Assembly (NCBI GenBank): GCA_937934285.1
Contig: CALHAT010000026.1
Span: 1 to 59,776, forward strand
Length of the DNA: 59,776 nt
Direction of reading: 5' to 3'
DNA from: Minisyncoccota bacterium
GTDB taxonomy: Bacteria > Patescibacteriota > Minisyncoccia > UBA6257 > HR35
The translations under genes were made by a program, and so were the position numbers. This document shows positions 5,992 to 22,393 of the stretch, in pieces. Every line of letters starts with the position of its first letter. The stretch's first letter is position 1. The notes beneath the pieces were generated by a model that searched no databases, was not told where the DNA came from, and saw only the letters and a program-made list of their open reading frames with translations.

Positions 5992-6554
5992 TTGATCAAT
6001 GCTTCAGTTAATCTCAATAAAGGAATCTTTAAAATAACTCTACCTATTATTCTTTCTCTTTTAACGGGTCCCCATTTTCGAGAATCATAACTAACTTCCC
6101 GATTATCTCCTAAAACAAAATACTCATTTTTACCTAAGGTTAAGTCGATTTTTCCTGAAGTATAGTGATTTTGAAGATAATCTTCCTCGAGAACAAAACC
6201 ATTGGAATTTTCTTCATTGAAAATCATAATTTTATTTTCATTAATAACAATCCTTTCTCCAGGAAGACCTATTACTCTTTTAATATAAAAAACTTTATCA
6301 TCGAAAGGAGGATGAAAAATGATTATTTCCCCTCTTTTTGGATCGCGTAAAAAAAAACTTAATTTATCAATAACTAAATAATCCCAATTATGGAAATTAG
6401 GCTCCATACTTTCACCTCTAACTAAAAATGGTTCCGTTATAAAAAATCTCACTGGAACAACTATTAAAATAAATAAAAAGGCGATTTCAATAAAATCAAA
6501 AATTAGTTGTCTTTTCATTCTAAAATTATACCACAATTTTATCATCAATTTCAA
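5988..6554 (-). CDS. lepB: Signal peptidase I
   Basis: GESMEPNF (catalytic Ser box), KRVIGLPGE and GDNREVSYDSR. The maximal ORF is given here. The internal Met at 6518 (MKRQLIF...) would remove the 29-nt overlap with infB and may be the real start. Confidence 0.85.
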   Translation of the reverse strand: MKLMIKLWYNFRMKRQLIFDFIEIAFLFILIVVPVRFFITEPFLVRGESMEPNFHNWDYLVIDKLSFFLRDPKRGEIIIFHPPFDDKVFYIKRVIGLPGERIVINENKIMIFNEENSNGFVLEEDYLQNHYTSGKIDLTLGKNEYFVLGDNREVSYDSRKWGPVKRERIIGRVILKIPLLRLTEALIK

Positions 6555-8272: not shown

Positions 8273-9118
8273 TTATAACATAAAATTAAAATAGATTTTA
8301 GTCAAAGATTCACCAAAAAGAATTGCTCCTAAGGTTCCTAAAAAAATAAAAGGAACAAAAGGAATTGGTTTCTTTAAGTTTTTCTCTTTTAAGATAAAAT
8401 AGATTCCACAAATTGAACCCAAAAAAGAACTGAGAATAATTGCTAAAAGACCATCGCCGGGTCTTAAAAAAAGCCCTAATAAAAAAGCAATCTTAACATC
8501 ACCAAAACCAATTCCTTTGCCTTGAGTAATTAAAAAAATCAAAAGAAGAATTGAACTTAAAAAAAATGGAGTAATTAAAGTTTCGAATTTCCCAAAGTTA
8601 AAAAGATAATTTAAAAGATAAGAAAAGTCACGAGGAAGGATTAAAAATTTTTTTTTAGCTAAATTAAATAAAATGCCTGTTAAGACACCAAAGAAAATTA
8701 ATCGATCATCAACCAAATAAGTTTTTAAATCATATAAAGCTAAAACAAAAAGAATACTAAAAAAAATTAAATAAAAAAGAAATTCTACAACAAATATCGG
8801 GTTTAGTGTTGTTTTTAGTGAAAAAGCTAAAAGGAAAACCCAAAAACCAGTAAAAATTTCTACCAATGGGTATCTGAAAGAAATTTTATTTTGACAGACA
8901 CGACATTTTCCTTTTTGGAAAATGAAGCTCAAAATCGGAATTAATTCATACCATTGTAAAATTTTCCCACAAGAAGGACACTTTGACCGAGAAAATAGAA
9001 AATCTTCGTTTTTTTCTAGTCTTAAAGCTATATTATTTAACAAAGAGCCCAGAAATAAACCTAAAATAAAAAAAAACATTAAAATCCAAAACGAGCACGA
9101 CAAATTTGATTTCGCCAA
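8273..9118 (-). CDS. pilD: Prepilin peptidase (A24 family, PilD-like)
   Basis: N-terminal zinc motif CPSCGK...CRVCQNKISFRYPLVE, a polytopic membrane profile and GIGFGDVK (Asp box). An alternative start at 9079 forms a TAATG junction with the upstream stop. Confidence 0.88.
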   Translation of the reverse strand: MAKSNLSCSFWILMFFFILGLFLGSLLNNIALRLEKNEDFLFSRSKCPSCGKILQWYELIPILSFIFQKGKCRVCQNKISFRYPLVEIFTGFWVFLLAFSLKTTLNPIFVVEFLFYLIFFSILFVLALYDLKTYLVDDRLIFFGVLTGILFNLAKKKFLILPRDFSYLLNYLFNFGKFETLITPFFLSSILLLIFLITQGKGIGFGDVKIAFLLGLFLRPGDGLLAIILSSFLGSICGIYFILKEKNLKKPIPFVPFIFLGTLGAILFGESLTKIYFNFML

Positions 9119-10335
9119 AATCTACAAGGGGCATCATTTTTACCTAAAACTTGAATAGTTTTTTCATAGAGAGGATGATTTCGCCAATCTCTTTGAGTTT
9201 GCACACAGAAACCCAAACGGCAATAATAATCATAAACCTTTAAAGAAAATTGCCGACAGTTATTACTGGGATTGACATCTGTTATTGGATTATTATTATT
9301 ATTAACTAAACAAGCAGTAACTGAATAATTATAAGCATTTTGAAATATATATTCCTCTTTAACTTCCTTAGGATAAGAAGAATTAAATTGTGATTCAATG
9401 CTTTTTGTTTCATAAGGTGAAGCTGAAATATCTTCGGGCTTTATAAATATTCGTAGCTTAGAAGAAGGACAATTGCCAAAATTACATTCTCCTTTAGCAG
9501 AAAACTCAACAGGTCGATTTCTTTGAGTTTCTGGACATTGAAGAATTGTTTTACCTTCTATTTGATTAATATTCATATAATCAGTAGCTGCTGTAGTTGA
9601 AGGTGGATATTGATAATTTGGGTTTCTTGAAAGATAATCTGAAATATAAGAAATGTCTGGAGTATTGTTTTTGCAAATAAAAGAACGAATATCAAGTTTT
9701 GTTACGGCAACATCAAAACAATTATTTGGATCTGGTAAACAGGTATTTTCTTGGTAAGTTGAACAGTCTTGTCTTATACAAGTTCGTACTGCTGGTCTAT
9801 GAGTAGGAGGACAACCACCTGTTCCACAATTACCTGTAATTGACCAATTACCACAAGATGGATTACAAGTTGGAGGTGGAGGAGGTGGTGGAGGAGGTGG
9901 TGGCGTGGAAGTTGGCGTGGAAGTTGGTGGAGAAGATCCTCCTGTTACAGTTATACTTCGGGAAGAACATTCATAGGTGAAGGATTCTCCAGCAACCCTA
10001 CACACAACAGTAGCTCGATAAGGTCCATAATTTCCTGGATTTTGATAAGTATAATTACAAGAAAAATTATTAAAAGTGCAGGGTCCGTTCCAGGATACGC
10101 TACAATTTGAAGAATTTGGAGAAACATTAAAGGTAACGGTTAATGGTGCTGATCCACTTGTCGGTGAAGCTGAGAGAGAGCATGACTGTTCACAAGCAGG
10201 TAAGAAAATTCCTTTTTCAAAAGTGAGTGGTTTGCCTAACAAATCAAAAAAAGGTCTGAAAATAAAAGCTTCGGTTATTAAAGGCAGGATTAGTAATAAA
10301 GAGGTTATAATAAAAATAAAATTATTATTTTTCAT
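9079..10335 (-). CDS. Secreted PKD-domain protein with a poly-proline linker and a Cys-rich C-terminal region
   Basis: Signal peptide. PKD-like segment SASPTSGSAPLTVTFNVS...YTYQNPGNYGPYRATV. A run of 11 Pro follows a TSTP x2 repeat. Many Cys lie downstream. GC is locally much higher than in the flanks. Confidence 0.7.
   Translation of the reverse strand: MKNNNFIFIITSLLLILPLITEAFIFRPFFDLLGKPLTFEKGIFLPACEQSCSLSASPTSGSAPLTVTFNVSPNSSNCSVSWNGPCTFNNFSCNYTYQNPGNYGPYRATVVCRVAGESFTYECSSRSITVTGGSSPPTSTPTSTPPPPPPPPPPPTCNPSCGNWSITGNCGTGGCPPTHRPAVRTCIRQDCSTYQENTCLPDPNNCFDVAVTKLDIRSFICKNNTPDISYISDYLSRNPNYQYPPSTTAATDYMNINQIEGKTILQCPETQRNRPVEFSAKGECNFGNCPSSKLRIFIKPEDISASPYETKSIESQFNSSYPKEVKEEYIFQNAYNYSVTACLVNNNNNPITDVNPSNNCRQFSLKVYDYYCRLGFCVQTQRDWRNHPLYEKTIQVLGKNDAPCRFWRNQICRARFGF
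9871..9927 (-). repeat. Low-complexity coding repeat: (CCN)11 poly-Pro tract plus a 12-bp x2 direct repeat
   Basis: On the plus strand, tggaggtggaggaggtggtggaggaggtggtgg (9871-9903) is followed by cgtggaagttgg x2 (9904-9927), which encodes TSTP-TSTP. Confidence 0.9.
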
Positions 10336-11218
10336 TTTTATTTATTATACTATAAATTTCTGCAATTTTTAAATTAAGGGATTCTCTGTCAAGTCCTTCA
10401 GCAATTTTAAGATAGCTTAAACCACTGATAATTTCTTTAGTTTTATTATAAAATTCTAAGGCTTTTTGCCATTCACCGTTTTTTTCATAAGCCAAAGCTA
10501 AATTAAAAGCAATGCCGGCTTTAATGTTTTCTATCATTTGTAAGGCTAATTTAGGATCATTATTAGGATAAGCTTGTAAGTAATCATTAACAGTTAAGTT
10601 TTGAGATTTTACAAAAGCTTTTTCTAATTCTTGAATAGCTAAATCATATCTACCTTGATTTAAATGAATAACTCCTAAACCATTTAAGCTCCAAATACTT
10701 TCCGGTTTTTTTTGATTCACAACTCTCATTATCTCTTCAGCTTTATCAAGCTTGCCCTGAGAAAATAAAATCCAAGCAAGATTTAAATAACCTGCCCAGC
10801 TATCTGTTAAAGATATTTCTTGACGAAAATCTTTTTCAGCTTTATCCCATTGCCGAAGATAGCCATAAATAATTCCTCTTTCATGATAAGCATAGGGATG
10901 ATTGGTAAGCTCTATTTCTTTAGTAAAGTAATTTAAAGCCTCATTTAAGGAAACAAAGCTTTGATTGAAAAAGAAAAATTTTCCTAATTCTAAATTAATG
11001 CCCGGATAGCGAGGATTTAATTTATAAATTTTTTTAAAATATTTAAAAGCCTCTTCATAATCACCTTCAGCTTTTAATCTCAGAGCGATTTCAAATAGAT
11101 TTTTAATGGATATTTGGTTTGATTTTAGTTTAATTAATTTATCTGTTAAAAAAAATATACTCAGACTTAAAAAAATTACCACCAGTAAATAATACTTTTT
11201 ATTATCCTGATGATTCAT
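10325..11218 (-). CDS. Membrane-anchored TPR-repeat protein
   Basis: N-terminal TM helix, then repeated TPR-like 34-mers (AEGDYEEAFKYFKKIYKLNP, QGKLDKAEEIM, QGRYDLAIQELEKA, NGEWQKALEFYNK). Confidence 0.75.
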   Translation of the reverse strand: MNHQDNKKYYLLVVIFLSLSIFFLTDKLIKLKSNQISIKNLFEIALRLKAEGDYEEAFKYFKKIYKLNPRYPGINLELGKFFFFNQSFVSLNEALNYFTKEIELTNHPYAYHERGIIYGYLRQWDKAEKDFRQEISLTDSWAGYLNLAWILFSQGKLDKAEEIMRVVNQKKPESIWSLNGLGVIHLNQGRYDLAIQELEKAFVKSQNLTVNDYLQAYPNNDPKLALQMIENIKAGIAFNLALAYEKNGEWQKALEFYNKTKEIISGLSYLKIAEGLDRESLNLKIAEIYSIINKNEK

Positions 11219-12346
11219 CTATTTTGATAATTCGTTTAAGACTTTTTCTAAATATCTTCGGTGGCTGGGTATAAGTAAATTTTTAGAGGCAAGTGCTTTA
11301 TTGTAATAATTTAGAGCTTCTTTTTTATCACCTTTAATTCTATAAATATCACCAATAACAATCCAGGCCGGAACTAACTCATTACTGCCGGGCCATTGAT
11401 ATTGCCAACCAGAAAAATTTTCTTTTAAATTACTATTATTTTCTATAATTTTGGGTATTAGGCTTTCAGCTTTAGCAAGTTGTCCTGCTTGAAGATATCG
11501 TTCGGCTGCTTCGCCATAAACTAAAACACGAAACCATCGAGGAAAATATTGGAAATTGTTCTCTTCAGATAATAAATTATCAAAAATTTCAACAATTTCA
11601 TTTAAATTATTGGGGACAGTGAATAAAGAAACATCTAATTTTTTTTCTTGAAGTAATAAATAATAAATATTTATTTTCTTCTGGTCCATAGCTGGAATTC
11701 GCTGAGGATAACTATAATTCTGACTAAAAAGTTTTAATCTTTCTTTATAATCCCGGGGTCTTATAATTAAAAAGTACCGTTGTGTCGCTTGCCATAATTG
11801 GTCAAATTCCCCATAATCTAATTCATAATTATTACCCAAAATAAAATCGTGGGCAATAACTTTTTTTCTTTTGTCATCTAAGCCAATAATCAATCGGTAT
11901 TCTAACCAATTTCCAGGATAATCTAAGCTTGTTTTTTGCAAAACAATAACCGGCGTTCTTTCTTGAGGATTAATAAACTTATATAAATCTTGGATACTAT
12001 TTGCTTGTAAAACTTGAGCATCAAATCCTGTTTGAAAAAGAGCAAAATGAGCCAGACTGTACATTGAAATTGCTCTAAGACCAATATTTTGAGGATAAGT
12101 TTTTAAAGAATTCTTTTCCTGATTCCAATAATCATAAACCATATCTAAAACAGCTTTAGCTGAGGTTCTAATTGGTCTACCATTATACAGATCAGCAGCA
12201 TTAAAACCAACATTATAAAAAGTATAATCCGGAACATTAGGAATAATATAAGAAGTTGTTCCTTTAAAATAAAACTTATAGGAAAGAAAACCAACTAATA
12301 GGATCCCAGCTAAGGTTGTTACAATTATTATAATTAACCTATTCAT
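11219..12346 (-). CDS. Membrane-anchored hypothetical protein: N-terminal domain reminiscent of a C39-like peptidase fold (no Cys in the whole protein), with a C-terminal TPR-like region
   Basis: TM anchor MNRLIIIIVTTLAGILLVGF. The layout ...TPVIVLQK...EYRLIIGLDDKRKKVIAHDF...YGEFDQLW resembles C39_2-type domains. The C-terminal part has TPR-like helices (GDKKEALNYYNKAL). I found zero cysteines on inspection. Confidence 0.55.
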   Translation of the reverse strand: MNRLIIIIVTTLAGILLVGFLSYKFYFKGTTSYIIPNVPDYTFYNVGFNAADLYNGRPIRTSAKAVLDMVYDYWNQEKNSLKTYPQNIGLRAISMYSLAHFALFQTGFDAQVLQANSIQDLYKFINPQERTPVIVLQKTSLDYPGNWLEYRLIIGLDDKRKKVIAHDFILGNNYELDYGEFDQLWQATQRYFLIIRPRDYKERLKLFSQNYSYPQRIPAMDQKKINIYYLLLQEKKLDVSLFTVPNNLNEIVEIFDNLLSEENNFQYFPRWFRVLVYGEAAERYLQAGQLAKAESLIPKIIENNSNLKENFSGWQYQWPGSNELVPAWIVIGDIYRIKGDKKEALNYYNKALASKNLLIPSHRRYLEKVLNELSK

Positions 12347-12367
12347 ATTAATTGTTGTATTTATTAA

Positions 12368-12847
12368 TTAAAGATTGGTACAACATGGGTAGGGGGGGTC
12401 CTCTGGACCACCTGAATCATCACACCCTCCGCAACATGATGGACTACTTCCTCCGCATGAATCAAAACAACCTTCACAACCTTCGGAACCTTCGGAACCT
12501 TCACAACCTTCGGAACCTTCGGAACCTTCGGAACCGCTCCCACCTTCGGAAGATGGGCCACTACATTCAACAAGAGCAGCATAAAGATCACCTTGATTAC
12601 CTCCTAAAGCTAACAAATTTTTATTTATTTTTTTAAAACCACATCCACCTCCACTACTTCCGCCTTCGACATGATCTGCCGAGGCTATATTCCAAGATTG
12701 ATATCTTTCTATAGAATAGTGGTTTTTTTTCTTTAGATAATTTAAAAAATTGTTAAATGGAGCTAACAGAAAAAACAAAATTAGAACAAATAGAATTTTT
12801 AAAAAATTTCCTATTTTTAAAGATGTATTAATAGCTTTTTTCACCAT
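12368..12847 (-). CDS. Candidate YcaO substrate or RiPP-like precursor: N-terminal basic plus hydrophobic segment and an acidic Cys/Ser/Gly-rich repeat tail
   Basis: It is the longest of three overlapping ORFs and the only one with a promoter. The last 66 aa (ECSGPSSEGGSGSEGSEGSEGCEGSEGSEGCEGCFDSCGGSSPSCCGGCDDSGGPEDPPYPCCTNL) hold 10 Cys, 14 Ser, 1 Thr, 17 Gly and 14 Asp/Glu, with no basic residue. It lies directly downstream of the ycaO and dehydrogenase genes. Confidence 0.6.
   Translation of the reverse strand: MVKKAINTSLKIGNFLKILFVLILFFLLAPFNNFLNYLKKKNHYSIERYQSWNIASADHVEGGSSGGGCGFKKINKNLLALGGNQGDLYAALVECSGPSSEGGSGSEGSEGSEGCEGSEGSEGCEGCFDSCGGSSPSCCGGCDDSGGPEDPPYPCCTNL
12469..12549 (-). 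repeat. 9-bp in-frame tandem repeat (7 near-perfect plus 2 degenerate units) encoding (G-S/C-E)n
   Basis: The plus-strand unit is aaccttc[a/g][c/g], tiled head to tail from 12469. Units 1-3 are identical to units 4-6, giving a 27-bp higher-order repeat. Confidence 0.9.
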
Positions 12848-12859
12848 CTTAATAAACTA

Positions 12860-12887
12860 ATTTTAACAAATTTTTTTATTTTGTCAA
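12860..12887 (-). promoter_or_regulatory. Sigma-70-type promoter for the Cys-rich ORF (TTGACA-N16-TAAAAT with a TGn extended -10)
   Basis: The minus strand reads TTGACAaaataaaaaaatttgtTAAAAT inside the 59-bp gap between the dehydrogenase stop and the ATG at 12847. The -10 lies only about 13 nt from the ATG, so the leader would be very short. Confidence 0.55.
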
Positions 12888-12906
12888 CAAAAGTTTTCCA
12901 CAGGCT

Positions 12907-13626
12907 TTATTTACCTATTAATAAAGTATAAACTAAGGATTCTTCAAAACCGTCAATATCTAATAGTTTTTTTTCTATCTCGTCATCATTGGTGCCAGCT
13001 AAAGCGCAGCATTTCAGTCCCAAAGCTGTAGTTAATAAATAAATATTTTGTCCGATATGGCCCGCTTCTTGCAAAATAAATCTATAACCCCTTTGACCAT
13101 ATTTGTTTAAAGTTCGCCAAAAAACACCAGTTAAAAAAATAATCAGTGATGAATCCTGGGCAAATTCATAAAAAAAATATTTTTTAAATTCTTCCTTATC
13201 AATTCCGGGATTAAATAAAAATTCAAGCTGATGATTTTTAACATCATAATGAAAGATACCCTTTTCTAACCCAGAACCTGGTTGGAGAATTAAACAATAA
13301 GTTTCAATGGGATATCTACCGCCACCTGAGGGTATAGCTCTTTTACCATTTTCTTGCAAACCACAAGAATACTTTAAAAGTAAAGACAATTCTTCTAAGC
13401 TGATTGGTTTTTGCGTAAATTCTCTTTGAGTCTCTCTTTTTTTTATAGCTTCAAACAAATTAAATTCTTTAAAATTGTCAATCAATTTGATTTTCTTAGC
13501 TCGTGGATATGATTTATAATAAATAGTTTTCCATTCCTCGGGCCATAAAGTTGAATCCTTGGGAATCTTTTTATAAAATTTTTTTGTATATTGATGAAAT
13601 ATATGAGCTAAAGGTATTTCTTTCAT
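12907..13626 (-). CDS. SagB-type (nitroreductase-fold, FMN) dehydrogenase
   Basis: RETQREF, PSGGGRYPIETY, GIFHYD, RTLNKYGQRGYRFILQEAGHIGQNIYL and ALGLKCCALAG match the SagB-type dehydrogenase domain pattern. The start overlaps the ycaO stop (ATGA). Confidence 0.8.
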   Translation of the reverse strand: MKEIPLAHIFHQYTKKFYKKIPKDSTLWPEEWKTIYYKSYPRAKKIKLIDNFKEFNLFEAIKKRETQREFTQKPISLEELSLLLKYSCGLQENGKRAIPSGGGRYPIETYCLILQPGSGLEKGIFHYDVKNHQLEFLFNPGIDKEEFKKYFFYEFAQDSSLIIFLTGVFWRTLNKYGQRGYRFILQEAGHIGQNIYLLTTALGLKCCALAGTNDDEIEKKLLDIDGFEESLVYTLLIGK

Positions 13627-15089
13627 GGAAAAAGATGAGGCAAGGAATTAATTTCTTGACGAATTAATCTTGGGCTTTTTTTTATTATGTCGCTCTCCCA
13701 GAGATAAAGAGGTAACAAGTTGGGAATTATTGCTTTAGCTGAATAATAACCTATTTTTTTTAAAACAGGATTATTTGACAAAAAGTAATAAACTTCATAA
13801 CCAGGTCCCAGACTTTCTATTTTTTTAACGACAAAGTTTAGCTCCTCTTTTAAAGAATTAAAAATTTTAAAACCGTCTTTATAAAGCTCATAAAAGCTTA
13901 ATTGGGGAGAATTGATAAAAAAATCCAGTTTACCTTTCATTTCTGAATTAGCCCATAAACGTAAACGATAATCTTGATTAACCCGAGAATCATAATAAGG
14001 AATAAGATTTGCTTCTTTAAAGGATGGAAAAGGTTGACGATAACTTATCCAATAAACCACGCTCCAAGCTTCAACAAAAGCCCTTTTTATAGCTTTTAAG
14101 GGATGGAGATTGCAACCTGCTCCCAAGCTATAACAGACTCCATTTTCTGAGGGATCATGAATTATTACTGAAAAAGAAGGTATTGCTAAATCAGTCGTAC
14201 AATCTAAAACATAAACTTCCAATCCATATTTAGTAGTTGTTTCGTAAAGAAATTGGAATTCTTGGTCAGGAACGGTTTGGGGGTCTATTCTTTTCGGAGT
14301 TATTTTATTAAGCCAGTGATAAAGAAAAGAATCTCTTTGAACTAATTCATAAACAGCGTATAAAATAGCTCCCTCCTGACTCCAATAACCGGCACAACCA
14401 TTAGTATTAGATTCAATAAGATGCGGCTCATCTTCAGCGCGTTTGTAATTCCAATAAACATATTGAGCAGGAATATAAAAGGTTTCATTAGTGCTCCATC
14501 TTTTCACTCTCTCCCAGTAAAATTTACTGTTTTTATCAAAATAGCGATCAGGAAAAATTCTTTTTTGCTCATCATCAAAACCGCTAATATTTTCTGGATT
14601 TATAACCTTAAATTTTCTTTGTAAATTTTTTAAAGAATCATAAATTAAATCTTTTCGAAAATAAATAGTTAGTGGAAATCTTTCTAAAAACTCATAAATC
14701 GCTTGATTAATGGTTTGTTCTAAATTTAACCCAAAGCCAGAAGCATAACCTCTTCGAGGTATATTACCGTCAGTTAGAACATAATCATAACTGGCTTTAA
14801 GTGAAAATCGATAAAAAAATGGCAAACCGTTTATTTTCTCATTGTGAGCAAAAAAGTTTTTTATAATTTTTTCTTTTAAAAGAGCTAAGAAAATTTTATT
14901 ATTATTTAACACTTCTAAATAATCATTGTCTCTTTCGTAAATTACAAGACCATCAATTCCGGTATTACCTTCTATTATCGTATAAACATTAGAAAATAAT
15001 TTATTTTGATATTTTAAAACTTCTTTAAAATTAACCAACTCAGCAACTGGTTTTGTCCGATAGCGACTTGTCCACAGAATTTTTTCCAT
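13623..15089 (-). CDS. ycaO: YcaO-domain protein (ATP-dependent backbone amide activation, cyclodehydratase-type)
   Basis: GYASGFGLNLEQTINQAIYEFLERF, ESNTNGCAGY, AVYELVQRDSF, LAIPSFSVII and a Pro-containing extreme C-terminus (SLPHLFP) match YcaO hallmarks. No fused E1-like domain is present. Confidence 0.85.
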   Translation of the reverse strand: MEKILWTSRYRTKPVAELVNFKEVLKYQNKLFSNVYTIIEGNTGIDGLVIYERDNDYLEVLNNNKIFLALLKEKIIKNFFAHNEKINGLPFFYRFSLKASYDYVLTDGNIPRRGYASGFGLNLEQTINQAIYEFLERFPLTIYFRKDLIYDSLKNLQRKFKVINPENISGFDDEQKRIFPDRYFDKNSKFYWERVKRWSTNETFYIPAQYVYWNYKRAEDEPHLIESNTNGCAGYWSQEGAILYAVYELVQRDSFLYHWLNKITPKRIDPQTVPDQEFQFLYETTTKYGLEVYVLDCTTDLAIPSFSVIIHDPSENGVCYSLGAGCNLHPLKAIKRAFVEAWSVVYWISYRQPFPSFKEANLIPYYDSRVNQDYRLRLWANSEMKGKLDFFINSPQLSFYELYKDGFKIFNSLKEELNFVVKKIESLGPGYEVYYFLSNNPVLKKIGYYSAKAIIPNLLPLYLWESDIIKKSPRLIRQEINSLPHLFP

Positions 15090-15097
15090 TTTTTAAT

Positions 15098-16027
15098 TTA
15101 CAATTTTAAAATCGCTTTAGCATTATTATAATAAATTTTTTTTAAAACATCCACTGGCAAAGCTAAACCTTCATAATATTCTTTAGAAGCAAAAAGGATA
15201 TCTTGATAATATTCTTTTTGCAAAATGGACAAGTCTAAAATAATTCTTTTAACAAACCATAAAAAATTTTTTTGCGGATCATCATCAATAACAATATCTG
15301 CAGCCCATAAAATTTTATCCTGAAACTTTATTAAAAAATTTCTGAACATATCTTTATTAAATTCAACAATGGTCATATATTTCTTAATTCCATAACCCGA
15401 AGAAATATCTATAAAAACATTAGAATATTTACTTAAAAGATATTCGCAAAGACTCAAACTTACTTTTTCGTCTAAGATACAAGAAGCATAATGAGCTAAA
15501 ATAAAATTTACTGTTGAGAATTTTTTAGCGATTTCCTCAAATTGATTTAAAAATTTATTATTTTTATGAAAATCAATATGCAAAAGAACGGGTACTTGAT
15601 ATTTATTAGCGACTTCATAAACTTTATACATATTTTCACTATTAATATCAGCAATAAAATTTTTAGTTTTTTCCGAATAAAACCAATCAATAAACTTAAT
15701 TCCTTGAGCACCATTTTTTATAGTTTCTTCTATGAATTCAGCTGCTGTCGTATCACCAGAATAACAGGTAGTAAAAATTATTATTCTTTCCCCAAATTTC
15801 TTCTTAAAATCAAAAAGACGGTAAAGGTGGTTTTTAAAAATAGGGTTATAAGGAGGCCAGTCAGTTGGTAAAAAAACAGCTTTTTCAATATTAAGAATCC
15901 TCATTGCCCAAATAAAAGATTCAATATTTCCTCCTGATCGATAATGCTCGTGAATAGAGATTTTTTTAAAATTTAAAAAATCAGTATCTAAAAATACTTT
16001 TCCCAAAACATTTAAAAAATCTTTCAT
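15098..16027 (-). CDS. Metal-dependent TIM-barrel amidohydrolase (amidohydrolase_2-like)
   Basis: N-terminal SIHEHY (HxH), mid-protein VLLHIDFH and FILAHYA, C-terminal LWAADIV and a terminal YYNNAKAILKL typical of this family. It sits 2 nt after the pilC stop and 8 nt before ycaO. Confidence 0.68.
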   Translation of the reverse strand: MKDFLNVLGKVFLDTDFLNFKKISIHEHYRSGGNIESFIWAMRILNIEKAVFLPTDWPPYNPIFKNHLYRLFDFKKKFGERIIIFTTCYSGDTTAAEFIEETIKNGAQGIKFIDWFYSEKTKNFIADINSENMYKVYEVANKYQVPVLLHIDFHKNNKFLNQFEEIAKKFSTVNFILAHYASCILDEKVSLSLCEYLLSKYSNVFIDISSGYGIKKYMTIVEFNKDMFRNFLIKFQDKILWAADIVIDDDPQKNFLWFVKRIILDLSILQKEYYQDILFASKEYYEGLALPVDVLKKIYYNNAKAILKL

Positions 16028-16029
16028 TT

Positions 16030-17235
16030 TTAGAAACTCTGAACATATTTAGTCAAAGTTAGTAAAGGAATAAGCAAAGAAGCTTCTAAAAGACCCAAAG
16101 CGGCTCCTAATAAAAGTATTAAAATTGGCTGTAAGGCTTCACTTAGATTAGTAACTTGATTTTCAACTATTTCATTGTAAAAATTATAAAGAGTTAAGGT
16201 AACCTCAGCAAGCTCGCCTGTCTTTTCAGCGGTTTTAATACCTTCAATCATAAAACTTTGAAAAAGGTCAGGGAAATTTGATAAAGATTCACTGAGAGGT
16301 GAACCTTTTTTGACATCTTCAACGATATATTCAAGAGCGGAAACATATAAGGGATTATCAAAGCTATCTTTGATAATTTCCAAAGCTTCAACGATTGGAA
16401 CCCCACCCTTGCTTAAGTGATATAGTGATTCTAAAAATTGAGCCGAATAATTGTTTTTAATTAAAGATCCCAAAATGGGTACATCGGAGACTAATTTAAA
16501 TAAGGTTGCCTTGCCCTCTGAAGTTTTAAATAGATAATCATAAAAATAAAATCCCAAAAGAATTAATGCGCCCAATATAAATAGTCCGAATTGTAATAGC
16601 AAATCAGCTATTGATTTAAAAATTTTAGTAATTAAAGGCATAGGTACATTATTTTCGGCAAAAATCGCTACTATTTGAGGAACAACATAATAAAATAGAG
16701 CGAAAAGAACGCCAAGAAAAATAAAAACAACAATAATAGGATAGATTGAAGCTTGAATAAGTCTATTCTTAAATTTAAATTGAGCATATAGATGTTGCGC
16801 GAGATATTCTAAAGTTTCATCTAAAACACCAACTGATTCTCCAATTTTAATCATTCCTACATAATAAGAATCAAAAATATCAGGAAATCTTGCTAATGAT
16901 TGAGAAAAGGTGATTCCGGAAATCAAATCATTATAAATCTCAACTAAAATCGAACGAAGAGCAGAATTTGGCATAGCTTCAGAAAGAGCTCTGATTGATT
17001 CATCTAAAGGTGTTCTTGATTTGATAAGATAAGAAAGTTGTTTGGTAAAGAAATAAATATCTCTTATGTTGGGTTTAAAAAGATAAGAAACTAAACTTAA
17101 TCGTTTTTCTGATAAATAAGTAACTAAAAGTTCCTGATTTTGTAAAATCTGTAAAGCTGCCTCTTTGTTATCAGCTGAAATAATTCCTTCTTTAAGTTTT
17201 CCTTCCCGAGTATAAGCTTTAAATTCAAACTGCAT
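16030..17235 (-). CDS. pilC: Type IV pilus platform protein PilC (GspF family)
   Basis: Two GspF-type repeats, three TM segments and the typical 401-aa length. It sits directly after pilT. Confidence 0.88.
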   Translation of the reverse strand: MQFEFKAYTREGKLKEGIISADNKEAALQILQNQELLVTYLSEKRLSLVSYLFKPNIRDIYFFTKQLSYLIKSRTPLDESIRALSEAMPNSALRSILVEIYNDLISGITFSQSLARFPDIFDSYYVGMIKIGESVGVLDETLEYLAQHLYAQFKFKNRLIQASIYPIIVVFIFLGVLFALFYYVVPQIVAIFAENNVPMPLITKIFKSIADLLLQFGLFILGALILLGFYFYDYLFKTSEGKATLFKLVSDVPILGSLIKNNYSAQFLESLYHLSKGGVPIVEALEIIKDSFDNPLYVSALEYIVEDVKKGSPLSESLSNFPDLFQSFMIEGIKTAEKTGELAEVTLTLYNFYNEIVENQVTNLSEALQPILILLLGAALGLLEASLLIPLLTLTKYVQSF

Positions 17236-17237
17236 TT

Positions 17238-18299
17238 TTATTCTTCAAGTAAATATTTAAGTTTCGTTGGATTTAAACTAAATTCAATAGCTTTTTCTAA
17301 AGAAATCTCATCTAAACGAACTAAGTTAACCAAGGATCTTTCTAAAGATATCATCCCTTCGCTTAAACTGGTATCAATCACGCTATCAATCTGATAAATT
17401 TTGTTTTCCCTTATTAAATTCCTAATAGCATTATTAGCTATTAAAATTTCACAAGCCGGAATTCGACCTCCTCTTATTCTCGGTACTAATCTTTGGGAAA
17501 TAATTCCAATTAAGGTGGAGGCTAATTGTAGTCTTCCTTGAGTTTTTTGATTTTCAGGCAAGACATCAACAATTCGATCAATTGTTTGGGAAGCAGAATT
17601 CGTATGTAATGTTCCCAAAACCAAATGTCCAGTTTCCGCCGCAGTTAAAGCAATTGAGATTGATTCCGGATCTCTTAATTCACCAATCATAATCACATCC
17701 GGATCTTGTCTTAAGGCTGCTCTTAAAGCGCGGTGCCAATTAGGAGAGTGAATAGGAATTTCTCTTTGAGAAATAACTGCTTTATCAGGATTAAATACAT
17801 ATTCAATTGGTTCTTCAATGGTTATAATATGAGATTGTCTTTGATGATTGATTGTATCTATTAGAGCTGCTAATGTTGTTGATTTACCCATACCAGCTGG
17901 ACCGGTTACTAAAATAAATCCTTGTCTTTTTTCAACAAATTCATTTAAAATGGGGGGTAAGTTTAATTCCTCAATACTTTTAATTTCATTAGAAATATAA
18001 CGAAAAGCTCCTGCCCATCCTTGAAATTGAAGATAAATATTCGCTCGAAAACGGATATTTTCTTCTAAGGAAAAAGAAAAATCTATATCTTTAAATTTAT
18101 TTAGCTGAGAAAACAAAACTTCATCCAATAAACTGAAAAGCATTGTTTCTGTATCTTCGGGAACTAAAACATCAAATTGAGTCAATGGGAAAATCTCTCC
18201 ATCTTTTCTCATTAAAGGAAAGCTGCCTGGTAAAATATGCAGGTCTGAAGCTCCTTGCTTTGATATAAAATAGAGATATTCTTTTAGTTTTTGATGCAT
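17238..18299 (-). CDS. pilT: Twitching-motility retraction ATPase PilT
   Basis: Walker A GPAGMGKSTT, Asp box, Walker B DPDVIMIGELRD and His box GHLVLGTLHTNSA. About 350 aa with no N-terminal GspE N-domain. Confidence 0.88.
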   Translation of the reverse strand: MHQKLKEYLYFISKQGASDLHILPGSFPLMRKDGEIFPLTQFDVLVPEDTETMLFSLLDEVLFSQLNKFKDIDFSFSLEENIRFRANIYLQFQGWAGAFRYISNEIKSIEELNLPPILNEFVEKRQGFILVTGPAGMGKSTTLAALIDTINHQRQSHIITIEEPIEYVFNPDKAVISQREIPIHSPNWHRALRAALRQDPDVIMIGELRDPESISIALTAAETGHLVLGTLHTNSASQTIDRIVDVLPENQKTQGRLQLASTLIGIISQRLVPRIRGGRIPACEILIANNAIRNLIRENKIYQIDSVIDTSLSEGMISLERSLVNLVRLDEISLEKAIEFSLNPTKLKYLLEE

Positions 18300-20002
18300 T
18301 AAGCGGATTTGAAAACTTCTTCTAAAGAAACAAGACCTTTGCTTGCTTTTATTATACCATCAAGTCTTAAGGTGATAAAATTTTGTTTTTTTAGAACTTC
18401 TAAAATTTCAGGTTCGCCTTTGTGTTCTAAAATAACTTTAGCAATTTCCTTAGTTATCTCGAACATCTCAAAAATAGCTGTTCTACCTATGAAACCTCGG
18501 TGATGACATTTTTCGCAACCCTTGCTATTAAAACATTTTATGGTTAAATTTTTATAATTTTCCGGCGCTTCCTGTAAAACTTTCTCAGCTTCTAATCTCA
18601 ATTCTTCGGAACAATCCTTTTCTTCTAAACAGTTTGGACAAAGAAGTCTAACTAATCTTTGAGCAATAACCAAATTAACGGTTGACGGAATAAAATAAGC
18701 TTTAACGCCCATATCCAAAAGTCTGGGAATAGCTCCAGCGGCAGTATTAGTATGTAAAGTTGAAAAAACTAAATGTCCTGTTAAAGCAGCATGAATAGCT
18801 AATTCAGCTGTCTCTTCATCGCGGATCTCTCCAACCAATATAACATCAGGATCCTGCCTTAAAATTTCTCTCAATCCTCGAGCAAAAGTATAACTAATCT
18901 CTGGTCTTACTTGCGATTGATTGATGCCTTGAATTTTATATTCAACCGGGTCTTCCAAACTAATAATATTAATATTTTCCTTATTAATTTCTTGAATCAA
19001 AGCGTAAAGAGTGGTCGTTTTTCCTGAACCAGTTGGTCCAGTTACTAAAATCATTCCATAGGGCTTTTTCAAATTAGCACGCATTATTTCGTAATGAAAA
19101 TCAGATAATCCTAATTCAGTAATTTTTTTAAGCCCAATTAAAGGATCTAAAATTCTGATAGCTACTTTCTCACCATTAATTGTCGGTAAAATACCTACTC
19201 GGAAATCTATTTCCCGTCCTTGAACTATAGCTCGGAACCGACCATCTTGAGTAATTCTAGTTTCATCCAGTCTCAAATTAGTTAAAATCTTTACTCGGTT
19301 AACCAAAGGTAAATGAATATCCCTTGGCAGATAAAGCATAGTTTTCAAATCACCATATAACCTAAATCGAACACGGGCTTTATCACTTAAAGGTTCTAAA
19401 TGAATATCTGAAGCATTCAAAGCTACGGCCTTTCTTAATAGGAGTTCGAAAAGTTGAATAATCGGCGCTTCTTGCACACCAACAACTTCTTGAAAAACAA
19501 ATGGCTTTTCGACTTCTATTTTTTTACCAGAAGAACTGCGGAAATTTAGAATATGTTTTTTAACTTCCATCTCGAAATCATAATAATCTTCTAAATGAAG
19601 ATAAAAATCTTTAACGGAAATTAAAAAAAGTTGGATATCTGCTTTTAAATTATGTTTAAGAGGAGCAATTACTCTTGATTGAAAATCAGAAATATCAGGA
19701 TCAACTACTCCTAAATAAAGAATTTTATTTTTAAATTCTAAAGGGAGAATTCTAAAATTGCGCGCCGTAGCTTCAGGAATCAATTTCAAAACCTCTGGGG
19801 GTATTTTCTCGTCAAGAGTAAATTTTTTTATTGGTAGATTATAAATTTTAGCTTTGAAATCCAGAAATTCTTCAGCAGGAATTAAATTTTTATTAAATAA
19901 ATAATCTTCCAAAGGGTAGTTAGAAATTTTTGCTTCTAAAATCCAATCTTGAATTGAGGGGTATTTTTCTTTAAAAAAGGAAATTACCTCTTCATCTTTC
20001 AT
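18299..20002 (-). CDS. pilB: Type IV pilus assembly ATPase PilB (GspE family)
   Basis: GPTGSGKTTT, DPDVILVGEIRD and GHLVFSTLHTN, plus the tetracysteine CPNC...CEKC motif and an N-terminal GspE-N domain. Confidence 0.9.
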   Translation of the reverse strand: MKDEEVISFFKEKYPSIQDWILEAKISNYPLEDYLFNKNLIPAEEFLDFKAKIYNLPIKKFTLDEKIPPEVLKLIPEATARNFRILPLEFKNKILYLGVVDPDISDFQSRVIAPLKHNLKADIQLFLISVKDFYLHLEDYYDFEMEVKKHILNFRSSSGKKIEVEKPFVFQEVVGVQEAPIIQLFELLLRKAVALNASDIHLEPLSDKARVRFRLYGDLKTMLYLPRDIHLPLVNRVKILTNLRLDETRITQDGRFRAIVQGREIDFRVGILPTINGEKVAIRILDPLIGLKKITELGLSDFHYEIMRANLKKPYGMILVTGPTGSGKTTTLYALIQEINKENINIISLEDPVEYKIQGINQSQVRPEISYTFARGLREILRQDPDVILVGEIRDEETAELAIHAALTGHLVFSTLHTNTAAGAIPRLLDMGVKAYFIPSTVNLVIAQRLVRLLCPNCLEEKDCSEELRLEAEKVLQEAPENYKNLTIKCFNSKGCEKCHHRGFIGRTAIFEMFEITKEIAKVILEHKGEPEILEVLKKQNFITLRLDGIIKASKGLVSLEEVFKSA

Positions 20003-20019
20003 TTTTCCCTTATAAAAAA

Positions 20020-20292
20020 TTAGAACAAGCTGTCCCGGCCAATTTCTTCATTTTTTATTAGAGGTAAAATCAAAGTTTCGACGGGTAAATTTTTTAAATA
20101 ATAATTAGCATCTTTAAAAGAGTAATTATTTACAAATTCTATTCTTCTCCTTAAATCCAACATCAATGGTGTTGGTTCTGACGGTTGCTTTAAAATTCTA
20201 AAATACCAAAAGGCATAAATAATAAGTCCGATTATAATTATGAACCAAAAAGTAAAAATTAAAAAATTTATTAAAAAAGACCTATTTTTCAT
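20020..20292 (-). CDS. Small single-pass membrane protein in the pilus operon
   Basis: 90 aa with one N-terminal TM helix. It lies between the PilO-like gene and pilB and overlaps the upstream stop by 4 nt. Confidence 0.5.
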   Translation of the reverse strand: MKNRSFLINFLIFTFWFIIIIGLIIYAFWYFRILKQPSEPTPLMLDLRRRIEFVNNYSFKDANYYLKNLPVETLILPLIKNEEIGRDSLF

Positions 20293-20831
20293 TTCGATTT
20301 TCGAGGCAGAAAGTAAGTTTCGACTTCGAATTTGGAAGGTTCCAGGGGTGATAAAATAGCCTTTTTAATTATCATCAAACGAGCACTCTGCTCAAGATAA
20401 TTTATAAATTCATTTAATTTATCGGAATTTAACTGAGCAGTTAAGGTGAAATTTATAGCCGATCGTGGTAAAATAAATTCTTCAAATTGTTGGGTATTTT
20501 CAGTGATTTTAAAATCAGCTCCAGGAAAACTAAGAGCGAAATTTTGATAGCCACTTGCTAAATAATAAATAATTTCCTCTATTTTGGGCTCTGTTGGTAG
20601 CCAAACATCCAAAGTTGAAGTCTGGCCCATAAGCTGTCTTAATGTAACATTTTGATTCAAGCTGTTAATTAATCTTTGTAAATTGTCTAATTCTATTTCT
20701 TTGTTTTTCAATTCATTGAATCTTTTTGCTAATTGAATAGTCTCTTGATATTTAGGATAAAGATAATTATTCATAACATAAAAAATAATGCCAACCAAAA
20801 TTAAAGGTAACATTTTTAACAGGAGATTCAT
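20289..20831 (-). CDS. PilO-like pilus assembly protein
   Basis: N-terminal TM helix, then a coiled coil (KEIELDNLQRLINSLNQ), then an alpha/beta domain. The position after the PilN-like gene is conserved. Confidence 0.5.
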   Translation of the reverse strand: MNLLLKMLPLILVGIIFYVMNNYLYPKYQETIQLAKRFNELKNKEIELDNLQRLINSLNQNVTLRQLMGQTSTLDVWLPTEPKIEEIIYYLASGYQNFALSFPGADFKITENTQQFEEFILPRSAINFTLTAQLNSDKLNEFINYLEQSARLMIIKKAILSPLEPSKFEVETYFLPRKSK

Positions 20832-21340
20832 TGTTGATAAAAAGAAGGGGTTAAACCAAGGACCATTGTAAAATTAATTTCATTCTGTTCAAATTTAGGA
20901 AATTGGATTTCTTTTATTTGAAAATGCTGTATTTTAGAAAGATAGTTGTGAAATCTAACATAATCAATCCAATCTTTAACTGAAGCTTTAATAGTGATTT
21001 TGTTCTCATCGTTATCAAACTCAAAGTTTTTTATAATTAAGAATTTGGGCATCAACTGATTAAACCGAGCTATAACAAAATTTAAAGAATGTCTCTGGCG
21101 AGCAATTTCTAAAATATTAACAACCTTAGAAAAAACATAAAAAAAGTCATTAGCTTCTAAATTAGTAATTAATTCTTTTTCCCGACGAACTAATTTAGAC
21201 TCAAGATCGTTAATTTGCTGACTAAGTTTTTGATTATAAAAATTCAAACCATAACTAAGCAAGTATTCCGTTAATAAGATAAGAGCAAAAGGTAGAATTA
21301 TGCCTAAAGGTAAAACATTATTTAATTTTAATTTTTCCAT
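20828..21340 (-). CDS. PilN-like pilus assembly protein
   Basis: Short cytoplasmic N-terminus, a TM helix and a coiled coil. It lies immediately downstream of pilM. Confidence 0.5.
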   Translation of the reverse strand: MEKLKLNNVLPLGIILPFALILLTEYLLSYGLNFYNQKLSQQINDLESKLVRREKELITNLEANDFFYVFSKVVNILEIARQRHSLNFVIARFNQLMPKFLIIKNFEFDNDENKITIKASVKDWIDYVRFHNYLSKIQHFQIKEIQFPKFEQNEINFTMVLGLTPSFYQQ

Positions 21341-21352
21341 TATACTTATATT

Positions 21353-22393
21353 TTAACTTAATAATTTTTTCATTAAAATACCTATTGCTTGACTAAAAAG
21401 ACAAGATTTTTCTTCTAACCTTTTAAACTTATTGCCTTCAACAAAATTAGCTGGGGATAAAATCTCGAAACTAATTTCTTGAAAACGCTGCAACATTGCT
21501 TCTTTGAAACCAGGAAGAAGACAAACTCCACCAGTTAAATAGATTTTATTTATTTTCATTAAAAATTTGTCTTCTAAATTTTTAATTTCGTTTATAATTA
21601 CTGAGTATAAATTATCGAGAAAGGTTTGGGCCATACTTTTAATTTCAACTTCTTCGGGATTAAAGATAAAACCTTTCGCCTGAACAAACTCAAGAACTTT
21701 ATCTTCAGGATATTTGGTTAAGTCGTGAATCATACTCAAATAATCAAAACCTCTTAACTTTAAACGGTTACTAAATATTAATCTACCATCCTTAACCAAG
21801 CTAATTATTGAATAAGAGTGGCCTAAATCTATTATACCGTAATTTCCTACCGCTTGCCAAAAATAAGGTTCTAAATTTAAATATTCACTACTATAGCCAT
21901 CGAGTCTTAATTTAGATAATTTGGCGATGTTTTCGATTCGTTGAATATAATTTTTAGGGATAGCGGTTAAAAAAACTAAATATTCTTTGTGTTTATTTTC
22001 TTTTTCAATCTCAAGGTAATTATACTCAATTTCAATTTCCTCTAAGGCAAGCGGTATTTGTTTTTGAGCCTCAAATTTGATAACTTGAGGAATATTTTTA
22101 GATGGAATATTGGGTATTAAAAAATTTACGGGGAAAACATAGGGAGCAGGAACACTAACAAATATTTGGTTGGTTTGTATTTTGGCTTCTTTAATGAAAT
22201 TTCTTAAAATAGAGGCGATCGTTTCTTCGACAATATGAGAAGTGGTTAAAATTTCTTTAAAATTAATAATGGGGATAACCCCAAAATTAGTAATTTCTAT
22301 TTTGCTTTCTTTTCTACGACATTCAACGATTTTAATATTAATTGAACCAAAATCAATGCTTAAAAACCTTTTTTCCCCAAAAAATAAAATCAT
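21353..22393 (-). CDS. pilM: Type IV pilus assembly ATPase-fold protein PilM
   Basis: Actin-like fold motifs are present (LSIDFGSINIKIVE, GIIDLGHSYSIISL, IYLTGGVCLLPG). It is the first gene of the pilMNO-BTC block. Confidence 0.8.
   Translation of the reverse strand: MILFFGEKRFLSIDFGSINIKIVECRRKESKIEITNFGVIPIINFKEILTTSHIVEETIASILRNFIKEAKIQTNQIFVSVPAPYVFPVNFLIPNIPSKNIPQVIKFEAQKQIPLALEEIEIEYNYLEIEKENKHKEYLVFLTAIPKNYIQRIENIAKLSKLRLDGYSSEYLNLEPYFWQAVGNYGIIDLGHSYSIISLVKDGRLIFSNRLKLRGFDYLSMIHDLTKYPEDKVLEFVQAKGFIFNPEEVEIKSMAQTFLDNLYSVIINEIKNLEDKFLMKINKIYLTGGVCLLPGFKEAMLQRFQEISFEILSPANFVEGNKFKRLEEKSCLFSQAIGILMKKLLS

Follow-up and report, generated by a model that had tools for sequence, protein, structure and literature searches.

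Linear azole-containing peptides (LAPs), a type of peptide that is made by ribosomes and modified after translation (RiPP), have been reported before from the candidate phyla radiation (CPR). The available text of Sharrar et al. 2020 counts 110 LAP clusters from 93 genomes of the CPR, with a nitroreductase beside ycaO in 89, and presents a cluster composed of YcaO, a nitroreductase, a peptidase and an 84-aa precursor (mBio; PMC7298704). Other described RiPPs resemble the locus studied here in single traits. Bufferins are metallophores modified by MNIO enzymes; their precursors carry Sec signal peptides, and cytoplasmic Cys heterocyclisation is followed by Sec export without a dedicated exporter and by signal peptidase cleavage (PMC11626156). 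In the bottromycin pathway, the metal-dependent amidohydrolase PurAH trims the precursor after YcaO has acted (PMC10885120). Here we analysed a stretch of 59,776 nt (contig CALHAT010000026.1 of assembly GCA_937934285.1, Minisyncoccota bacterium), called the window throughout, in which a seven-gene cassette lies between the type IV pilus genes pilC and pilD. We consider it likely that this is a RiPP cassette of the LAP or thiazole/oxazole-modified microcin (TOMM) type, that it belongs to a CPR-specific YcaO clade and that it works as proposed below. Its probable function is to form azole rings from the Cys/Ser-rich tail of a peptide anchored in the membrane.

Given the clusters of Sharrar et al., as far as their available text goes, azole cassettes as a kind are known in the CPR, and a preliminary description of this DNA went too far in calling such a system unusual for a reduced CPR-like genome. 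As in those clusters, YcaO and a nitroreductase or SagB-type protein are encoded with a small Ser/Cys-rich precursor (~84 aa there) and a 'peptidase' neighbour, and both the published clusters and the present clade occur in Parcubacteria and Microgenomates genomes. In contrast, the available text, which is short and at antiSMASH level, does not mention a signal-anchor leader, an A-x-A↓D junction or a missing E1-like partner, nor does it speak of AMMECR1 or amidohydrolase genes, a degenerate C39-like domain or a pilus context. In the literature searched, which omits most subscription journals, we found no paper on the leader architecture or the companion proteins, none on AMMECR1 together with YcaO and none on a coupling of YcaO to type IV pili, the last in agreement with the preliminary description.

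With the classical TOMM and LAP systems (microcin B17 with McbBCD, streptolysin S with SagBCD, plantazolicin and phazolicin) the cassette shares a YcaO protein, a flavin mononucleotide (FMN) dehydrogenase of the SagB/McbC type and a core of Gly, Ser and Cys. Unlike these systems, it encodes no E1-like (SagC/McbB) or Ocin-ThiF-like partner and no leader protease of the CaaX or TldD/E type, and, as already described, neither an ABC exporter nor an immunity gene is found near it. Furthermore, its leader is a hydrophobic signal-anchor, whereas theirs are soluble, and its core is strongly acidic. Bufferins are similar in their long Cys-containing precursors, in an N-terminal signal of the Sec type, which is putative in our case, and in the lack of an exporter, and they set a precedent for forming heterocycles in the cytoplasm on a precursor with a Sec signal; heterocyclisation, export and cleavage are predicted features on our side. 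However, bufferins depend on MNIO/DUF692 and DUF2063 proteins instead of YcaO and SagB, and the linker is much longer here. No MNIO (DUF692) domain was found in the cassette; the resemblance is one of logic only. The bottromycin pathway likewise encodes a partner-less YcaO beside a metal-dependent amidohydrolase (PurAH/BotAH), but its precursor has a follower where ours has a leader, and it has no SagB-type oxidase.

Gene order and modifying enzymes

On the minus strand of the window, pilM, three small open reading frames (ORFs), pilB, pilT, pilC, the amidohydrolase gene, ycaO, sagB, an ORF of 159 aa, three further genes and pilD form an unbroken array. The cassette and its context comprise the following features:

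15098..16027, minus strand: amidohydrolase, 309 aa (Pfam Amidohydro_2)
13623..15089, minus strand: YcaO cyclodehydratase, 488 aa (PF02624)
12907..13626, minus strand: SagB-type FMN dehydrogenase, 239 aa (TIGR03605)
12860..12887, minus strand: promoter-like site (consensus match)
12368-12847, minus strand: putative precursor ORF, 159 aa (ORF and conserved architecture)
12677..12847, minus strand: precursor leader, aa 1-57 (sequence, conserved in relatives)
12368..12676, minus strand: precursor core, aa 58-159 and stop codon (composition)
12467..12551, no strand assigned: 9-nt (27-nt) tandem repeat inside the core (Tandem Repeats Finder)
11219..12346, minus strand: membrane-anchored C39-like/TPR protein, 375 aa (weak NCBIfam match, AlphaFold2/Foldseek)
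10325..11218, minus strand: membrane-anchored TPR protein, 297 aa (multiple Pfam TPR families)
9079..10335, minus strand: secreted Cys-rich protein, 418 aa (signal-peptide-like N-terminus)
8273..9118, minus strand: prepilin peptidase PilD, context (Pfam A24_N_bact 100.9 bits, Peptidase_A24 50.4 bits)
5988..6554, minus strand: signal peptidase I, context (Pfam Peptidase_S26, 140 bits)
16030..22393, minus strand: upstream type IV pilus block from pilM to pilC, context
16030-17235, minus strand: pilC (Pfam T2SSF, 175.7 bits)
17238-18299, minus strand: pilT (Pfam T2SSE; pilB and pilT score 408 and 164 bits)
18299-20002, minus strand: pilB (Pfam T2SSE; scores as given with pilT)
20020-21340, minus strand: three small ORFs in the pilM-pilB interval, without profile match
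21353-22393, minus strand: pilM (Pfam PilM_2, 64.7 bits)

Re-measurement confirmed the gene order and the first four spacings of the preliminary description: 2 nt separate pilC from the amidohydrolase gene, 8 nt separate the latter from ycaO, ycaO and sagB share a 4-nt ATGA overlap, and 59 nt precede the 159-aa ORF. Zero gaps or overlaps had also been stated for all junctions from this ORF down to pilD, which is correct for the last three (0, -11 and -40 nt) but not for the first, a gap of 21 nt. The labels pilN and pilO were dropped, as the ORFs concerned have no Pfam match, and so was the label of the 418-aa protein as a PKD protein (PKD at E=0.16 only). The interval originally marked, 12368-16027, is too short: the conserved unit reaches down to ~9079, and because the same gene set recurs in relatives, we take ~9079-16027 as the cassette. 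A recent foreign insertion was rejected, since the GC content of the cassette (0.28-0.31) is the same as that of its flanks. A defence system was rejected as well, with zero PADLOC matches for all seven cassette proteins. Rfam and ARAGORN searches for RNA elements returned tRNAs only, all of them outside the cassette.

Approximately 34 related loci, designated by L-numbers, were compared with the window, and 29 of them were clustered for gene-content counts. YcaO has 28 close homologues in a collection of 5.8 billion proteins. In a scan with one genome per species, its nearest relatives (31-39% identity) came only from Patescibacteria/CPR, with other phyla at 30% or less; these were genomes of Sungii-, Morani-, Lloyd-, Lipton-, Adler- and Woesebacteria and bins with the label Saccharibacteria. 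Judged by these identities, the YcaO clade is specific to the CPR. Relatives of the window include L102, a contig with 99.9% identity, L007 (YcaO 79%, DNA 83%) and L008 (YcaO 47%). The recurring set consists of an accessory enzyme gene, ycaO, the sagB-type gene, a small ORF and then a membrane-anchored protein of ~370 aa. A homologue of the SagB-type dehydrogenase is encoded in 19 of the 29 clustered loci, and frequent additions are a ~270-aa TPR protein (14 loci) and a secreted protein that is Cys-rich or of the PKD or BACON kind. In the main, the CPR loci L010-L031 and L044 combine YcaO and SagB with a small precursor and a repeat protein anchored in the membrane. The accessory enzyme varies by sub-clade, being the amidohydrolase in the window, L007, L008 and L102 and an AMMECR1 protein in most others.

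The family assignments of the three enzymes made in the preliminary description passed the profile checks. YcaO matched PF02624 with 174.8 bits, and its best NCBIfam match was TIGR03604, the SagD family, with 192.9 bits (runner-up 75.9 bits). With its AlphaFold2 model (predicted local distance difference test, pLDDT, 88), Foldseek placed LynD (E 3e-24), MusD, TruD, MJ1094 and McbD at the top, the same entries that a profile search of the PDB returned. The ATP-binding ExxER motif (E133, E136, R137) and further acidic residues are invariant in the family. Invariant are also P484, H485 and F487 at the C-terminus, where the family consensus reads NPLPHPFP and the window protein ends with ...LPHLFP, Leu replacing the middle Pro. 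A proline-rich C-terminal motif (PxPxP) is typical of azoline-forming YcaOs, and Dunbar et al. reportedly dealt with its significance in 2014. In addition, the protein carries an N-terminal extension of 115 aa. We rejected this extension as an RRE or E1-like domain, as the N-terminal 120 aa gave no Pfam match and Foldseek found only a non-significant dsRBD-like resemblance. The SagB-type dehydrogenase matched TIGR03605 with 135.8 bits (cutoff 78.4) and Pfam Nitroreductase with 69.8 bits.

Alternatively, YcaO might have other or additional chemistry: thioamide or amidine formation, or a MusD-like ATP-dependent cleavage of the leader, with a nitroreductase-fold protein that is perhaps no azoline oxidase. 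MusD, to which 'YcaO-mediated ATP-dependent peptidase activity' is ascribed, ranks high in sequence and structure searches alike, the cassette has neither a partner protein nor a dedicated protease, and the score of YcaO lies under the SagD-family cutoff of 219.25. However, the threshold of the SagB model was clearly passed (135.8 versus 78.4 bits), no TfuA gene is located nearby, the core rich in Gly-Ser and Gly-Cys resembles known azole-forming substrates, and the family's proline-rich C-terminal motif is of the kind expected for azoline formation, though with Leu for the middle Pro in the window protein. Other chemistry of this sort is hence, in our view, highly improbable, and we continue with YcaO as a probable azoline-forming cyclodehydratase.

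The amidohydrolase matched PF04909 (Amidohydro_2) with 36.9 bits (cutoff 26.4). Its metal ligands, HxH (H26, H28), H150, H179 and D244, are invariant in 11 sequences. The gene is located upstream of ycaO in L007, L008 and L102 as well, and among YcaO cassettes it is an accessory enzyme limited to the window's sub-clade. The family itself is not confined to such cassettes: scanning metagenome contigs with the amidohydrolase gave 12 loci, mostly short, among which L097 has a non-RiPP context and L098 a larger RiPP-like cluster. Sequence and profile searches over all PDB chains (E<=1) revealed no relative of the amidohydrolase, and thus no homology to PurAH, the presence of a PurAH structure among these chains being unconfirmed. 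Since similarity to solved structures is not detectable, the likeness to PurAH is one of function only.

In most relatives, an unrelated AMMECR1 protein of 640 aa is encoded directly upstream of ycaO, in the place of the amidohydrolase. BLASTP found no similarity between the two; they are alternative accessory genes and not homologues. In the 640-aa protein (L005:8074-9996, L001:7995-9959, L018:7975-9903), the AMMECR1 domain resembles AmmeMemoRadiSam protein A (68 bits), and the C-terminal half gives weak signals of an alpha/alpha-barrel (GH127, TED, QxxDGSF-type repeats). At L009:10001-12550 (P0023), this C-terminal half is fused to YcaO in a protein of 849 aa, which suggests that it may be an unrecognised YcaO partner.

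Precursor architecture, companion proteins and proposed pathway

The last 66 residues of the 159-aa ORF contain 10 Cys, 14 Ser and 1 Thr, exactly as counted before, together with 17 Gly. The ORF is a real gene: its leader is kept in L007, and 26 or more of the related loci have an ORF of equivalent architecture. The earlier view of a Cys/Ser/Gly-rich substrate gene beside an azole enzyme set is also borne out by the relatives, where the pairing of enzymes and precursor is kept (26 loci with equivalents). The protein starts with MVKK..., continues with the helix ILFVLILFFLLAPF... and then reads ...NIASA↓DHVEGG... That is, its leader (aa 1-57) consists of a Lys-rich N-terminus, a hydrophobic helix of ~21 aa and a 19-aa linker and ends with A-S-A. 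This leader is conserved in L007, where the DNA is 83% identical, and in L102.

A shared plan became apparent from 26 precursors: the N-terminus is rich in Lys and Arg and is followed by a hydrophobic helix (17-25 aa), a linker (median 20 aa), a junction and an acidic core. The leaders have a median length of 50 aa. Cores measure 21-57 aa in this plan (median 34.5 aa, n=26), and the 102 aa of the window core make it the longest. The junction reads [A/V/T]-x-A↓D/Q and is often followed by x-P, with Ala at -1 in 26/26, Ala at -3 in 21/26 (otherwise Val or Thr), Asp at +1 in 22/26 and Pro at +3 in 11/26 precursors. Junctions were located by the pattern of a small residue, any residue and Ala, so that the invariant Ala at -1 is partly built in, while the pattern does not account for the residues preferred at -3 (Ala), +1 (Asp) and +3 (Pro). 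Pooled cores consist of 25% Gly, 17% Ser, 11% Cys and 15% Asp plus Glu, with Lys and Arg nearly nil. The window core is rich in Gly-Ser and Gly-Cys and contains a repeat that encodes (E-G-S/C)n (period 9, 7.4 copies, 89% match in Tandem Repeats Finder). In L008, the core is built of CEGQ repeats.

Two observations concern the window core in particular. Over 4731 nt, L102, which comes from another sample, matches the window with 99.9% identity, up to an abrupt divergence within the 9-nt repeat, where the contig ends (L102:4732-4792, against window 12467-12551). This may reflect a core that is hypervariable among near-identical strains, or else an assembly break at the repeat. Residues ~71-84 form a non-repetitive stretch, FKKINKNLLALGG↓NQGDLYAALVE, which loosely resembles a double-glycine leader. 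The 159-aa protein might therefore carry a second, internal processing site, and the stretch was seen in the window strain only.

The 59-nt gap upstream of the precursor gene, the only sizeable intergenic one of the array, contains a promoter-like site (TTGACA, 16 nt, TG-TAAAAT) that fits 11/12 consensus positions and ranks within the top three matches over 15 kb. By this consensus match, the precursor gene appears to have a strong promoter-like site of its own.

Downstream of the precursor gene, the 375-aa protein comprises an N-terminal transmembrane helix, a degenerate papain/C39-like domain and TPR repeats. The NCBIfam match to C39_PA2778 is weak (33.8 bits, cutoff 150), and a relative in L105 matches Pfam Peptidase_C39_2. 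The AlphaFold2 model (pLDDT 74) matches peptide-binding TPR domains as well as the C70 protease AvrRpt2 (E 6.6e-4). The N-terminal half belongs to a family of 240 representatives at E<=1e-3. Among 90 aligned members, no column reaches 20% Cys, and conservation is limited to H166 (91%), D167 and G171-N-N-Y-E. An active C39 leader protease was rejected on these grounds: with no conserved Cys, the protein is no canonical cysteine protease and more likely a peptide-binding module. The C39-like domain (CLD) of HlyB-type ABC transporters likewise lacks the catalytic Cys. Thus, the two have in common a papain/C39-like fold without nucleophile, which suggests substrate binding over cleavage; the domain of the 375-aa protein is, in contrast, fused to one transmembrane helix and TPR instead of an ABC transporter, and its fold assignment is weak. 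In most family members the positive charges precede the helix, which suggests that the C-terminal domains face outward. A gene of this type directly follows the precursor gene in 7 loci. In 15 others, an unrelated membrane-anchored helical-repeat protein occupies the position; homology between the two families was rejected (hhalign probability 8%), and they were handled as non-homologous.

The 297-aa TPR protein has a hydrophobic helix at its N-terminus; TPR homologues of ~240-280 aa are encoded in 14 of the 29 clustered loci. The 418-aa protein has a signal-peptide-like N-terminus, 25 Cys and a poly-Pro linker. Its membership in the cassette is uncertain: no homologue was found in the related loci, but L001, L005 and L018 encode Cys-rich, PKD or BACON secreted proteins at its position.

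In the pathway we propose, the 159-aa protein would be the substrate of a cytoplasmic, partner-less YcaO that uses ATP to cyclodehydrate those Cys and Ser residues of the acidic tail that follow Gly. The SagB-type flavoprotein would then oxidise the azolines to azoles, and the amidohydrolase would act as a tailoring or trimming hydrolase specific to the sub-clade. More speculatively, the signal-anchor-like leader may carry the modified tail across the membrane via the general Sec pathway, and the tail may be freed at the A-x-A↓D junction by signal peptidase I or another protease. The C39-like/TPR, TPR and Cys-rich secreted proteins could, still speculatively, serve at the cell surface to bind the product or keep it in place. 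Features of a Sec signal are the positive N-terminus, the hydrophobic helix and the Ala at -1, although a linker with a median of 20 aa is long for one. A signal peptidase I, the candidate for A-x-A cleavage, is encoded in the genome. Its gene belongs to the same co-directional run and lies downstream of the precursor gene, at a distance of 5.8 kb; none of the related loci has it near the cassette, so that this proximity is probably incidental.

The length of the linker bears on the alternative that the small protein stays membrane-anchored and has its tail modified in place, as a protein-level modification and no classical RiPP, with A-x-A-D-x-P as a recognition motif for the enzymes instead of a cleavage site. 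A hydrophobic segment of 17-25 aa has transmembrane length, the A-x-A motif follows it at a median distance of 20 aa, a long way for signal peptidase I, and the conservation of Asp at +1 and Pro at +3 exceeds what this peptidase needs. Moreover, the cassette encodes no active protease, and the window core is long for a RiPP. On the other hand, Ala at -1 together with Ala, Val or Thr at -3 is the classical signal peptidase I pattern, even if partly selected by the search pattern, and bufferin precursors of similar size are cleaved at a predicted signal peptidase site (PMC11626156). Weighing both, we regard a permanently anchored protein as unlikely, if the most serious of the competing explanations, and retain the azole-peptide pathway, with export as its more speculative part.

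Several findings nevertheless weigh against this pathway. The score of YcaO falls short of its family cutoff, neither an E1-like or Ocin-ThiF-like partner nor an RRE domain was found in the genes from 8273 to 22393 or in annotated relatives (a partner gene elsewhere in the genome is conceivable), and the amidohydrolase has no detectable relative in the PDB. The long linker fits a signal peptidase I site poorly, and the junction was partly chosen by the search pattern. In one relative, L012, the core has no Cys. Finally, as the C39-like domain is without catalytic Cys, no dedicated leader protease was identified.

If the pathway holds, the locus and its relatives would represent a variant of azole-peptide biosynthesis with a partner-less YcaO, a leader like a Sec signal-anchor and an A-x-A↓D junction, in which extracytoplasmic TPR and pseudo-peptidase companions take the place of exporter and protease. 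Routing of RiPPs through Sec, for which bufferins have been the main example until now, would then extend to YcaO chemistry, and there would be a first handle on the role of such peptides in CPR cells. Given the tiny genomes and the host dependence of CPR, a conserved pathway for a specialised peptide likely matters for their lifestyle.

Variation among the related loci

Some relatives encode further proteins close to the cassette. In L008, a second, divergent YcaO (515 aa, L008:3268-4815) lies between the SagB gene and the precursor. In one sub-group (L015:608-6194, L016:1273-9122 and L021:7877-15500), ycaO and the precursor gene have neighbours that encode a TlpA-like thioredoxin and a thiol-disulfide transporter of the CcdA type, along with three tandem membrane-anchored rhodanese-like proteins and a methyltransferase. 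These assignments were made by reading the sequences, and the genes hint at extracytoplasmic thiol chemistry on an exported Cys-rich peptide.

Radical SAM genes are located close to the cassette in L001 (5113-7953), L004 (4496-6403) and L009 (8977-9906). In L001 and L004 they are of the radical SAM/SPASM type, and L004 encodes a 56-aa ORF and a transglutaminase-core protein in addition; in L009, the radical SAM gene adjoins the precursor gene. They may stand for extra modifications or for a second RiPP system. Small ORFs of the selfish-element type (PDDEXK_3, a 23S rRNA-intervening-sequence protein and GIY-YIG) were detected at L001:11573-11968, L004:11572-11961 and L106:3870-4154. They are inserted between ycaO and sagB or alongside, and the surrounding order of the cassette is retained.

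The pilus neighbourhood

The physical embedding of the cassette in a pilus gene array, as first described, was confirmed: it lies between pilC and pilD in the window, and the 99.9%-identical L102 shows the pilus embedding as well. Among the other loci, pilus genes were detected in three of ~34 in the flanking DNA examined. In L008, pilC lies directly upstream of the amidohydrolase gene. In L018, pilB, a pilin gene, pilT, pilC, a second pilin gene, pilD and two ORFs are followed by an AMMECR1-type cassette with a PKD protein and by three minor pilin genes. In L001, pilD is found ~6 kb upstream and a pilin gene ~5 kb downstream of the cassette. In a rough neighbour-joining tree, the pilus-flanked loci fall into three separate YcaO lineages, namely the window with L008, L018, and L001. 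Elsewhere, the neighbours include glycosyltransferases, NrdD with ComEC, ribosomal proteins and transporters, and a conserved co-occurrence with pil genes was not found, with ~31/34 related loci being free of pilus genes in the flanking DNA examined. The cassette thus behaves as a self-contained unit, contrary to the preliminary description, in which it was no free-standing island. Of the links whose conservation was in question there, the pairing with a precursor recurs in 26 loci and the pilus linkage in three. The pilus neighbourhood is a trait of a minority of lineages and no defining feature of the cassette.

Close spacing had also been read as a sign of transcriptional and functional coupling to the pilus genes. 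However, 43 of the 53 same-strand gene pairs in the window are 10 nt or less apart (median gap -1 nt), and the co-directional run of 26 genes that contains the cassette includes hisS, lepB, infB, gatC, scpB and a D-Ala-D-Ala carboxypeptidase gene. Tight spacing says little about function where it is the norm, and the precursor has a promoter-like site of its own; this part of the earlier interpretation goes too far.

The azole system might still be coupled functionally to the biogenesis or use of type IV pili, for instance through a peptide that is made together with pili and acts at pilus-mediated host contact, or one that serves the pilus machinery or decorates it. With 2-nt gaps or overlaps and no terminator-like site found on the minus strand, the location of the cassette between pilC and pilD is consistent with this idea. 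So are the adjoining pilC in L008 (YcaO 47% identical), the L018 cassette between pilB-pilT-pilC-pilD and three minor pilin genes, the L001 cassette between pilD and a pilin gene, and the spread of such loci over three YcaO lineages. Yet this is set against the ~31/34 related loci without a pilus gene nearby, the housekeeping genes of the same densely packed run and L007, in which the pilC junction is replaced by AT-rich non-coding DNA (57 nt or more) on the upstream side of the amidohydrolase gene. Three to four hits among ~34 loci are only weakly above expectation at an assumed chance of 3-7% for a pilus cluster within 10 kb, a rough estimate that was not computed from whole genomes. Precursors also lack a prepilin signal: a pilin or PilD substrate was rejected, as neither the window precursor nor any of the 26 has a class III G↓F-T-L-I-E signal. 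We therefore judge a functional coupling to pili quite unlikely. It is unproven, and the neighbourhood counts as a lead, no more; a weak, non-universal association with pili is conceivable.

A more specific version, doubtful to an even greater degree, would have an azole-modified acidic peptide exported via Sec, retained at the surface by the TPR and C39-like proteins and used together with type IV pili in CPR episymbiosis, its core diversifying through the 9-nt repeat. Such a peptide could be a contact-dependent, streptolysin-S-like permeabiliser of the host or a metal-binding peptide of the surface. If this were true, no earlier RiPP would have been linked to the apparatus by which CPR cells attach to hosts, and the partner-less YcaO system, with its signal-anchor leader, would be new.

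Two further genes of the window relate to pili. Apart from the main pil operon, between the RNase J gene and the S12-S7-EF-G ribosomal genes, a pilin-like gene of 297 aa is located at 29844-30737 on the minus strand, with an N_methyl motif (GFTLIE, 25.3 bits). Divergent from pilM, at 22242-23057 on the plus strand, lies a ComF-like ORF that combines a double zinc ribbon with a phosphoribosyltransferase domain. Its true start is probably later, because the version with a GTG start overlaps the 5' end of pilM by ~150 nt. A competence gene beside the pilus operon is consistent with DNA uptake.

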